Part shown: positions 22,018 to 28,022 of the stretch, in pieces
Numbering within the stretch: the stretch's first letter is position 1
Layout: every line of letters starts with the position of its first letter
NCBI RefSeq assembly: GCF_003334355.1
Contig: NZ_QOWP01000002.1
Direction: 5' to 3' (one strand)
Source: Escherichia coli
Lineage (GTDB): Bacteria > Pseudomonadota > Gammaproteobacteria > Enterobacterales > Enterobacteriaceae
Length of the DNA stretch: 64,000 nt
Notes under the pieces: generated by a model
The model's input: the letters and a program-made list of their open reading frames with translations, nothing else
What the model was told of the DNA's origin: nothing
Database searches by the model: none
Position numbers and translations under genes: made by a program

Positions 22018-26082
<4,065 letters not shown>

Positions 26083-26093
26083 CCGACCTTTTG

Positions 26094-26129
26094 ATGCCCG
26101 GTAAGCACATTGCTTATCGGGCATTTTTG
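26094..26129 (+). terminator. Rho-independent terminator of glpABC
   Basis: atgcccggtaagc / gcttatcgggcat forms a 13-bp stem (one G-U) with loop acatt, followed by TTTTT. Confidence 0.8.
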
Positions 26130-26275
26130 CGAGCGCGATTCCACGCACCATGTATGCGTTGCAACGCTTTGAAAATTCCTCTGAAAATGTCTCGCAAAGG
26201 CTGAAACTGACAGATGTCAAAGGCCCGGGATAGACGTAATGTCGCGTCATCATAAATATCAGGTGACGGACAACC

Positions 26276-27178
26276 ATGACCGAATCAACAACATCCTCCC
26301 CGCATGATGCGGTGTTTAAAACCTTTATGTTCACACCCGAAACCGCACGGGATTTTCTCGAAATACATTTACCAGAACCACTGCGCAAGCTTTGCAACCT
26401 GCAAACCTTACGCCTGGAACCCACTAGTTTTATTGAAAAAAGTTTACGCGCTTACTACTCGGATGTTTTGTGGTCCGTGGAAACCAGCGACGGTGACGGC
26501 TATATCTACTGCGTGATTGAACATCAAAGCTCTGCAGAAAAGAATATGGCTTTTCGGCTAATGCGCTATGCCACTGCCGCCATGCAGCGTCACCTGGATA
26601 AAGGCTATGACAGAGTTCCGCTGGTGGTGCCATTGCTGTTTTATCATGGCGAAACATCGCCCTACCCGTACTCACTTAACTGGCTGGATGAGTTTGACGA
26701 GCCGCAACTTGCCCGGCAGTTGTACACCGAAGCTTTTCCGTTGGTGGATATCACCATCGTACCTGACGATGAGATCATGCAACATCGGCGTATAGCTCTG
26801 CTGGAACTGATTCAAAAGCATATTCGCGACCGCGATTTAATCGGCATGGTCGACAGGATCACCACGCTTTTGGTTAGAGGCTTCACTAATGACAGCCAGC
26901 TACAAACACTGTTTAATTATCTGCTGCAATGCGGCGATACCTCCCGTTTCACCCGTTTTATTGAGGAGATTGCCGAACGTTCACCACTACAAAAGGAGAG
27001 ATTAATGACTATTGCTGAACGGCTACGGCAGGAAGGGCATCAAATTGGCTGGCAGGAAGGTATGCATGAACAAGCCATTAAAATTGCTTTGCGCATGCTG
27101 GAACAGGGCATTGATCGTGACCAGGTGCTCGCGGCCACCCAGCTAAGCGAAGCCGATCTGGCAGCGAATAACCACTAA
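26276..27178 (+). CDS. rpnB: Rpn-family recombination-promoting nuclease (PD-(D/E)XK, transposase_31-like)
   Basis: 300-aa ORF beginning [36 protein letters not shown]; formerly yfaD. Confidence 0.88.
27005..27178 (+). CDS. Candidate intragenic small protein (RpnS-like antitoxin), in frame with the rpnB C-terminus
   Basis: In-frame ATG at 27005 preceded by AAGGAG (26993-26998) with a 6-nt spacer. Would encode the 57 aa [57 protein letters not shown]. Confidence 0.45.
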
Positions 27179-27218
27179 TTAACACAGGCCCACAGCCGAT
27201 CCCCATGGGCCTTTGATA

Positions 27219-28022
27219 TCAATAACTACCTTTTATGCGTGGCCCATTTTTGCCTGATTTAAACATCGCCAGTCGTTGATCCAGGGCATCGCTGTAGAGC
27301 ATCGTGTCAACGCCAACAGCGACAAAGTTCGCTCCCCACGCCAGGCATTGCTGCGCCATATCAGGAGCCACAGCCAGAAAACCAGCCGCTTTACCCGCAG
27401 CACGGATCCGCCGAATACTGGTTTCAATAATTCGCTGCACTTCCGGGTGCCCGGCGTTATCCGGGTAGCCCAACGACGCAGAAAGATCCGCAGGTCCAAT
27501 AAACACGCCATCAATCCCTTCGACGTCGAGGATTTCGTCCAGGTTATCCAGTGCCGTTTTACTTTCCACCTGCACCAACAGACAAAGCGAATCGTTAACT
27601 TGCGCCATGTAATTCTCAATGCGTCCCCAGCGCGCAGCCCGTGCCACACTGGCCCCGACACCACGCTCACCGTAGGGAGGATAGCGCGTGGCAGACACCA
27701 CCTGACGTGCCTGTTCGGCAGTATCGACCATCGGGATCAGTAGAGTTTGCGCGCCAATATCCAGGACTTGTTTAATCAGCGGTTTACTGCCTTCCACCGG
27801 ACGGATCACGGGTTGGCTGGCATAGGGCGCTACCGCCTGTAGCTGATGATAAAGATCCTGAATGGTGTTTGGCGCGTGCTCCCCGTCAATCAGCAACCAG
27901 TCATAACCAGAAGTGGCGGCAATTTCTGCCATATAGGCAGTCGTTGAGCTTAACCACAGACCAATTTGCACTTCGCCCTTGCGTAAACGTTCTTTAAAGG
28001 GATTGCTTAATAATGCGTTCAT
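27219..28022 (-). CDS. rhmA: 2-keto-3-deoxy-L-rhamnonate aldolase
   Basis: Track ORF 27219..28325 is over-extended. Refined ATG at 28020-28022 ([24 protein letters not shown]) gives 267 aa. Confidence 0.9.

Follow-up and report, generated by a model that had tools for sequence, protein, structure and literature searches.

An in-frame internal translation start in Escherichia coli rpnE and its small product, the candidate intragenic antitoxin RpnE_S

The closest described systems are other Rpn nuclease genes, in which a full-length protein (L) and a small C-terminal protein (S), translated from an internal in-frame start, are made from one locus. For RpnA, RpnB and RpnP2 the S protein neutralises the L protein of the same gene, as it was also shown to do for RpnC (Zhong et al. 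2023, PMC10400941). In the same study RpnA_S was found to be a dimeric three-helix bundle in which the 4-aa repeats of helix 1 set specificity, and strains were seen to vary by 4-aa repeats starting 8-20 residues past the S start. Published protection against T-even phages concerns the plasmid-encoded RpnP2 only (Zhong et al. 2023, PMC10400941). The internal start of rpnE was mapped in 2019 (Meydan et al., bioRxiv 10.1101/520783), and its small protein was placed in the RpnL/RpnS family in 2023 (Zhong et al. 2023, PMC10400941). The rpnE start described here is already known, and its detection is a correct rediscovery, not a new finding.

The DNA analysed is a 64,000-nucleotide stretch of E. 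coli (contig NZ_QOWP01000002.1 of assembly GCF_003334355.1), referred to here as the window; all coordinates are those of the window. The locus is E. coli rpnE, one of five chromosomal genes for Rpn (YhgA-like) PD-(D/E)XK nucleases. The full-length ORF, at 26276-27178 on the plus strand, encodes RpnE_L, a protein of 300 aa. This identity follows from the agreement of synteny, RefSeq naming, NCBIfam scores and published nomenclature. The gene order glpC / rpnE / yfaU (rhmA) is the same as in K-12, RefSeq gives the gene name rpnE, RpnE_L scores 704 bits against the equivalog model NF007418 (titled 'ISNCY family transposase'; cut-off 583) and 176 bits against TIGR01784 (cut-off 52), and yfaD is rpnE in the naming of Kingston 2017. 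The original prediction had labelled the gene rpnB(yfaD), and that label is wrong; rpnB is a different gene, yfcI, found at another place in the genome and adjoining hisP in K-12. No further Rpn or S copies were found by tblastn within the 64-kb window. Among complete E. coli genomes, the region was matched in 5,421 of 5,426, and at least 80% of it was present in 5,410 of the 5,426. The median is one rpnE copy per genome, its location is always chromosomal, and full matches to the window in a single piece ranged from 100% down to 96.7% identity.

The RefSeq product name for rpnE is 'ISNCY family transposase', and the K-12 RefSeq product name for RpnE is 'inactive recombination-promoting nuclease-like protein'. 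A 14-nt inverted repeat, complementary at 13 of 14 positions, flanks rpnE at 26213-26226 and 27207-27220; this level of inverted repetition around the gene was reached in only 2 of 200 shuffles. Direct repeats flanking the inverted repeat were looked for and none were found, and the bracketing inverted repeat is absent from the other four rpn paralogs. No evidence of autonomous transposition of rpn genes was found by Zhong et al. (2023, PMC10400941).

Near the 3' end of the ORF, the plus-strand sequence AAGGAG at 26993-26998, which forms codons K240-E241 of RpnE_L, constitutes a Shine-Dalgarno (SD) sequence. It is followed, after a 6-nt spacer (26999-27004), by an ATG at 27005-27007 that is codon 244 and lies in frame with the upstream start, (27005-26276)/3 being 243. 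This ATG opens the internal ORF rpnE_S (27005-27178, plus strand; 57 aa and a stop codon), whose product, RpnE_S, is identical in sequence to the C-terminal tail of RpnE_L and, judging by its sequence and by homology to the RpnA_S structure 7TH0, is a small antitoxin-type protein. The motif, the in-frame ATG and the 57-aa peptide had all been predicted correctly to the base.

Such an arrangement could arise by chance, with AAGGAG being nothing but Lys and Glu codons and the ATG an ordinary internal Met at which no initiation takes place. The base rate lends this some support, as 1.73 matches to AAGGAG-N5-8-ATG are expected per window; five were found in the 64-kb window, a number that 3 of 100 shuffles reached. 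The remaining four all coincide with annotated gene starts, those of glpB, yfaV, elaA and elaD, and the combination of AAGGAG and ATG is therefore a reliable start mark in this window. The comparison with the paralogs also speaks against chance. The motif occupies the same codon positions in all the paralogs. The five K-12 genes and the standalone gene ypaA keep a GGAG core exactly 6 nt upstream of the homologous ATG, with AAGGAG in rpnA, rpnB, rpnE and ypaA, GGGGAG in rpnC and AGGGAG in rpnD. The residue under the first codon of the SD varies accordingly among Lys (AAG), Gly (GGG) and Arg (AGG), whereas the nucleotide core is constant. In ypaA the SD falls within the same 15-mer, AAGGAGAGATTAATG, which serves there as a non-coding ribosome-binding site (RBS), since the stop codon of rpnE falls inside it. 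Judging from these sequence comparisons, what is conserved is a nucleotide-level ribosome-binding site and not a Lys-Glu dipeptide. Prediction of the local RNA fold leaves both SD and ATG unpaired in a loop, and the structure around them does not exceed that of shuffled sequence (z = +1.23). Initiation on the identical K-12 sequence is moreover shown by inhibitor ribosome profiling and by tagging, and a chance arrangement is highly improbable.

Between 26740 and 27102, from 250 nt upstream of the SD through S codon 32, the window agrees with K-12 at every position (100% identity), and the K-12 data on initiation and expression therefore apply to it. Ribo-RET revealed in-frame internal start peaks in all five rpn genes, and these starts were called apparently the major initiation sites; the same study described locally enhanced synonymous-site conservation in yfaD and an rpnE internal product nearly identical to YpaA (Meydan 2019, bioRxiv 10.1101/520783). 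Initiation signal with Onc112 and retapamulin was likewise reported for the rpn internal starts, and chromosomal SPA tagging detected all five small proteins, including RpnE_S, plus YpaA, which was named RpnE_Ss (Zhong et al. 2023, PMC10400941). A small species could also result from proteolysis of RpnE_L, in which case the SD-like sequence would cause an elongation pause only. An RBS/ATG mutant of rpnE itself was not reported in the literature searched, which leaves room for this explanation. However, retapamulin and Onc112 trap initiating ribosomes, and their peaks occur in every rpn gene. Mutation of the RBS and ATG abolishes the S protein of a C. difficile homolog as well as that of RpnA, in the latter case by the changes K240R+E241D+M244L, whose residue numbers are the same as in RpnE (Zhong et al. 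2023, PMC10400941). In addition, S levels exceed L levels, and dRNA-seq data cited in that study place a transcription start site (TSS) within each of the rpn genes (Zhong et al. 2023, PMC10400941). The probability that proteolysis accounts for the small protein is negligible. Chance motif, elongation pause and proteolysis were all rejected on the published initiation-profiling and mutant data. Translation of RpnE_S from 27005 is almost certain, and it probably takes place off a short internal transcript. As had been predicted, standard annotation misses the small product: RefSeq annotates no rpnE_S either in K-12 or in a strain whose sequence equals that of the window (100% identity) throughout the 1,201-nt query.

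A candidate sigma-70 promoter for the short rpnE_S transcript lies at 26889-26917 on the plus strand and combines a -35 element ATGACA (26889-26894), a 17-nt spacer and a -10 element TTTAAT (26912-26917), with 10 of 12 consensus matches. The standard sigma-70 scan over 26000-27300, which demands that the second base of the -10 element be A, returned no promoter; the candidate came from a laxer scan. The two hexamers and their spacing are nucleotide-identical in rpnA, rpnB and rpnE, synonymous positions included, and in all three genes an AGA Arg codon preserves the last A of ATGACA. AGA is a rare Arg codon in E. coli. ATGACA is also kept in rpnD, where the -10 element is TTAAAT, and rpnC has neither hexamer. 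Downstream of the ORF, between the convergent genes rpnE and yfaU, a GC-rich palindromic hairpin at 27186-27212 (10-pair stem, six of the pairs G-C) is likely a terminator.

The small protein resembles RpnA_S in sequence and in predicted fold. In a single-sequence search residue 1 of RpnE_S aligned to Met1 of crystallised RpnA_S (PDB 7TH0) with an E value of 0.0015, and an S-peptide profile built without RpnA matched 7TH0 end to end (E 4.6e-11). Designer pentatricopeptide proteins, which stood above 7TH0 in the profile search of the PDB, were rejected as artefacts; their scores are sums over 10-11 weak repeats, and no single stretch is significant. The AF2 model of RpnE_S (pLDDT 79.5) has helices at residues 3-33, 38-45 and 49-55, and its best match in Foldseek was again 7TH0 (probability 1.00, TM 0.62/0.76), which was the sole confident PDB match. 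The weak other fold matches of the model are helix-turn-helix (HTH) domains (TrpR-like, Mu transposase I-beta subdomain and DeoR), and relatedness of RpnS proteins to HTH motifs by HHpred was noted by Zhong et al. (2023, PMC10400941). The Pfam scan of full RpnE_L gave no match to DUF4351 (PF14261), even at independent E values up to 10.

The alignment of RpnE_S with RpnA_S contains an 8-residue gap, equal to two repeat units. These two 4-aa units, HQIG WQEG, lie in helix 1 of S and are encoded at 27038-27061 on the plus strand; the sequence GGCAGGAAGG occurs as a direct repeat at 27027 and 27051. Extra repeats are inserted in S at 27062/27063, after residue 17-19, the number of units added there being one (KLEG) in ypaA and five in RpnE of strain SC455, a soil isolate. 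The repeat variation of RpnE_S and ypaA thus falls at the position expected from Zhong et al. 2023.

RpnE_L has the nuclease domain of the family, with its catalytic residues intact. The conserved PD-(D/E)XK / Transposase_31 domain (PF04754, Transposase_31/YhgA-like) covers residues 8-209, encoded at 26297-26902 on the plus strand, with an E value of 8.6e-88. The six residues D11, D63, E82, Q84, R94 and D165 (PDDEI motif), listed by Kingston 2017 as needed for RpnA activity, are all identical in the RpnE_L of the window. PADLOC-DB v2 yielded no significant model match for RpnE_L or RpnE_S. The original prediction had described Rpn nucleases as toxic, which for rpnE is an assumption, K-12 RpnE being the sole paralog that is non-toxic when overexpressed. 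Its overexpression led to no toxicity, no SOS induction and no stimulation of recombination, and RpnA-D were active in all three of these in vivo assays (Kingston 2017). It is plausible that the toxicity of RpnE was masked in the 2017 experiments by co-expressed RpnE_S together with chromosomal rpnE_S/ypaA, because the catalytic residues are intact and because RpnE_S and YpaA were also made from those constructs and in those hosts.

We consider rpnE very probably to be a gene within a gene, in which RpnE_L would be a latent nuclease and RpnE_S, made from an internal start, a type II-like antitoxin. Translation of the full ORF yields RpnE_L, and the internal SD and ATG yield RpnE_S, probably from a shorter transcript that starts at an internal promoter. 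By homology with RpnA, RpnB, RpnC and RpnP2, RpnE_S would be a three-helix protein whose long helix 1 pairs with the same helix in RpnE_L and so holds the nuclease inactive, and the count of 4-residue repeats in helix 1 would set the partner specificity. By this analogy we lean, with some reserve, towards RpnE_S binding the identical helix-1 region of RpnE_L and keeping the latent PD-(D/E)XK nuclease off. By homology only, RpnE_L would be a latent toxin, RpnE_S its neutraliser and the pair anti-phage; toxicity and defence are, in the case of RpnE, extrapolations from the paralogs. The prediction of an intragenic antitoxin-like protein agrees with the published model and with the detection of RpnE_S, and its antitoxin part stands as demonstrated for paralogs only. 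The literature searched contained no report of RpnE_S acting on RpnE_L, and nothing relevant was found in post-2023 literature on RpnE, YpaA or RpnS.

It may also be that RpnE_S is made but is not an antitoxin, RpnE_L being a domesticated or non-toxic paralog. RpnE_S might then, for example, bind DNA or have a regulatory role, take part in cross-talk with other Rpn proteins or act as a decoy for a phage factor. This reading would account for why RpnE, unlike RpnA-D, was inert in all three in vivo assays, and the weak HTH fold matches of RpnE_S and the HHpred relatedness to HTH motifs (Zhong 2023) would fit it as well. Furthermore, in two-copy strains the repeat number of ypaA differs from that of RpnE, and a mismatch of such kind abolished neutralisation in RpnC. 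However, RpnE has kept every residue that RpnA needs for its activity. The 2017 constructs unknowingly co-expressed S, the host still bore chromosomal rpnE_S and ypaA, and together these could, we infer, mask toxicity. RpnE moreover shares its L/S architecture, start position and repeat behaviour with paralogs whose antitoxins are proven. A role other than that of an antitoxin therefore seems quite unlikely.

The 3' end of the gene differs from that of K-12 rpnE. Up to 27062, the S region of the window is of the rpnE_S type, as judged by two SNPs and by the lack of the 12-nt KLEG unit. From 27103 to 27178 on the plus strand, the C-terminus shared by RpnE_L and RpnE_S has a tail of the ypaA (rpnE_Ss) type, with all 27 informative sites agreeing with K-12 ypaA, and the 62 nt compared past the stop codon of the window rpnE are those that follow K-12 ypaA. 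Between these two parts, at 27063-27102, lie 40 nt that are identical in both K-12 copies and form the putative crossover interval. A change at 27110 (Phe to Ile), apparently private, is shared by strain SC455, in its ypaA. With its one S region, the locus in the window is 195 nt shorter than the two-copy locus of K-12. Because an rpnE_S-type 5' part and a ypaA-type 3' part are joined with the switch in the shared 40 nt, the allele reads as recombinant, and its sequence is consistent with unequal recombination between rpnE_S and ypaA, although the reverse polarity is possible. RpnE_L and RpnE_S stay matched, because both end in the ypaA-type tail. Loss of rpnSs through fusion with the rpn N-terminal region has already been stated by Zhong et al. 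(2023, PMC10400941).

The two-copy junction (rpnE, 12 nt, ypaA) occurs in K-12 and in 3,134 of the 5,426 complete genomes, and about 42% of complete E. coli genomes are without it. In some 2,250 other complete genomes the query for the two-copy junction finds a match to its S-start half alone, as would be expected if they carry a single S region like that of the window. Since these half-junction genomes are joined by full single-piece matches spanning 100%-96.7%, the single-copy state appears common. ypaA is marked as a pseudogene by K-12 RefSeq, and its product, YpaA (RpnE_Ss), is expressed in K-12, as detected by SPA tag (Zhong et al. 2023, PMC10400941). We put forward, as a speculation more doubtful than probable, that the tandem rpnE_S/ypaA is a recombination cassette and that the approximately 58:42 split between architectures reflects recurrent switching under phage pressure. 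An unequal crossover in the shared 5' S sequence would re-tail nuclease and antitoxin in one step and leave the pair matched. Helices 2-3 would change with the switch, and so might the repeat number, according to where the crossover falls. The window allele would then be one product of the cassette, the 58:42 split would not stem from one old deletion, and the 14-nt inverted repeat could mark the moving unit.

The value of these results for annotation is that RefSeq omits rpnE_S, names the gene product 'ISNCY family transposase' and marks the expressed ypaA as a pseudogene. They also raise the question whether RpnE_L is a latent toxin that its antitoxin copies mask. The recombinant rpnE_S/ypaA tail illustrates how the module diversifies, a type of fusion already contained in the 2023 paper (PMC10400941).

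Of the known systems, RpnA_L/RpnA_S of K-12 (7TH0) is a close relative, its N-domain being 63% identical to that of RpnE. In both genes the SD lies at codons 240-241 and the internal start at Met244, and RpnA_S and RpnE_S share the same first 11 residues and the three-helix fold. RpnE_S differs from RpnA_S by two extra 4-aa units in helix 1 and by divergence of helices 2-3, the identity over S being 53%. RpnA has been demonstrated to be toxic, to act as a nuclease and to be neutralised by its S protein, whereas overexpressed RpnE was inert. The rpnE-ypaA locus of K-12 occupies the same chromosomal site, between glpC and yfaU. K-12 rpnE differs from the window at 11 positions in the N-terminal 717 nt and is identical to it from 26740 through the SD and the ATG to S codon 32. 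In ypaA (61 aa, with the extra KLEG) K-12 possesses another S gene, a standalone one, whereas the window has a single S region with a ypaA-type 3' half; the tail of K-12 rpnE ends in EREIVLATTQLTDADIPNCH and that of the window rpnE is of the ypaA type.

McrB/McrB-S and Cas10d/Cas11d are alike in that the full-length protein is modulated by a short isoform of its own C-terminal part, made from an in-frame internal start, and mcrB-S is present in the K-12 annotation. The McrB and Cas10d families are unrelated to Rpn. McrB-S, like Cas11d, is a subunit of a complex and is not known to inhibit a toxin. The Cas10d/Cas11d parallel was cited by Zhong et al. (2023, PMC10400941), who give the short product as a complex subunit. 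Classical type II toxin-antitoxin operons share with the Rpn pairs a protein antitoxin, helical and HTH-like, that binds and inhibits a protein toxin. Unlike in those operons, the Rpn antitoxin has no separate gene and is the toxin's own C-terminal domain, translated separately, and because of this Rpn toxin and antitoxin obligatorily co-evolve.

Comparison of rpnE (yfaD), the Rpn-family nuclease gene between glpC and yfaU, with its K-12 counterpart across window 26276-27102 revealed 11 substitutions, all of which lie inside 26293-26739, and none over the following 363 nt (26740-27102). This substitution-free interval contains the candidate internal promoter, the SD and ATG of rpnE_S (the in-frame internal ORF for the small C-terminal protein, S) and the beginning of S. 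In strain SC455, which has a more distant rpnE allele, just three changes were found across the equivalent interval. Synonymous-site conservation has already been published for yfaD (bioRxiv 10.1101/520783), and the lack of changes in 26740-27102 is consistent, as a sequence pattern, with that report and with overlapping signals. A recombination tract would give the same pattern in this interval.

Other alleles are altered in and around the S-coding part. In E. coli UTME-10 (L005, NZ_CP157104.1), rpnE is broken by an IS2 after residue 211, at 2009/2010 (window equivalent 26908/26909); the insertion leaves the nuclease domain on one side and the S-coding sequence on the other, and falls exactly between the -35 (26889-26894) and -10 (26912-26917) hexamers of the candidate promoter. 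RpnE of the soil E. coli SC455 carries five additional 4-aa repeats (KIEG WQEG KLEG LQKG KVEG), and its allele region (L004 1705-1935) is followed by a ypaA copy, a second, standalone S gene (L004 1936-2133). Repeat numbers differed between RpnE and its own downstream S copy in both of the two-copy strains examined.

The entire rpnE gene is enclosed by a 14-nt inverted repeat, starting 63 nt 5' of the ATG and ending 42 nt 3' of the stop, with arms GATGTCAAAGGCCC (26213-26226) and GGGCCTTTGATATC (27207-27220) that are complementary at 13 of 14 positions. When the 150-nt flanks were shuffled 200 times, an equal level was reached in just 2 cases. This repeat may mark the boundaries of an inserted module, or it may have arisen by chance. 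K-12 has the same repeat at 12/14, enclosing rpnE and ypaA together, and no comparable repeat was found at rpnA, rpnB, rpnC or rpnD. The right arm overlaps a GC-rich palindrome with a 10-pair stem (27186-27212) between the convergent rpnE and yfaU, which is probably a terminator common to both genes. On the other side, the glpC-rpnE spacer (26083-26235) has a 1-nt indel and diverges from K-12 and SC455 markedly more than rpnE itself; this spacer includes a GC-rich hairpin-like element directly 3' of glpC (about 26096-26125).

None of the database records examined annotates rpnE_S. RefSeq and NCBIfam NF007418 name RpnE (26276-27178) an 'ISNCY family transposase', although no evidence of transposition has been found, and RefSeq labels K-12 ypaA (L003 4817-5002) a pseudogene, although YpaA protein was detected by tagging (both PMC10400941). 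In RefSeq, the SC455 ypaA copy is a partial entry named 'hypothetical protein, missing N-terminus', whose first codon is the Lys codon of the SD. The K-12 annotation does list mcrB-S, close to rpnD (L009 19959-20001). Like rpnE_S, mcrB-S is a short isoform with its start codon inside a longer reading frame, here that of a defence nuclease, and so lends itself to comparison with other genes within genes.
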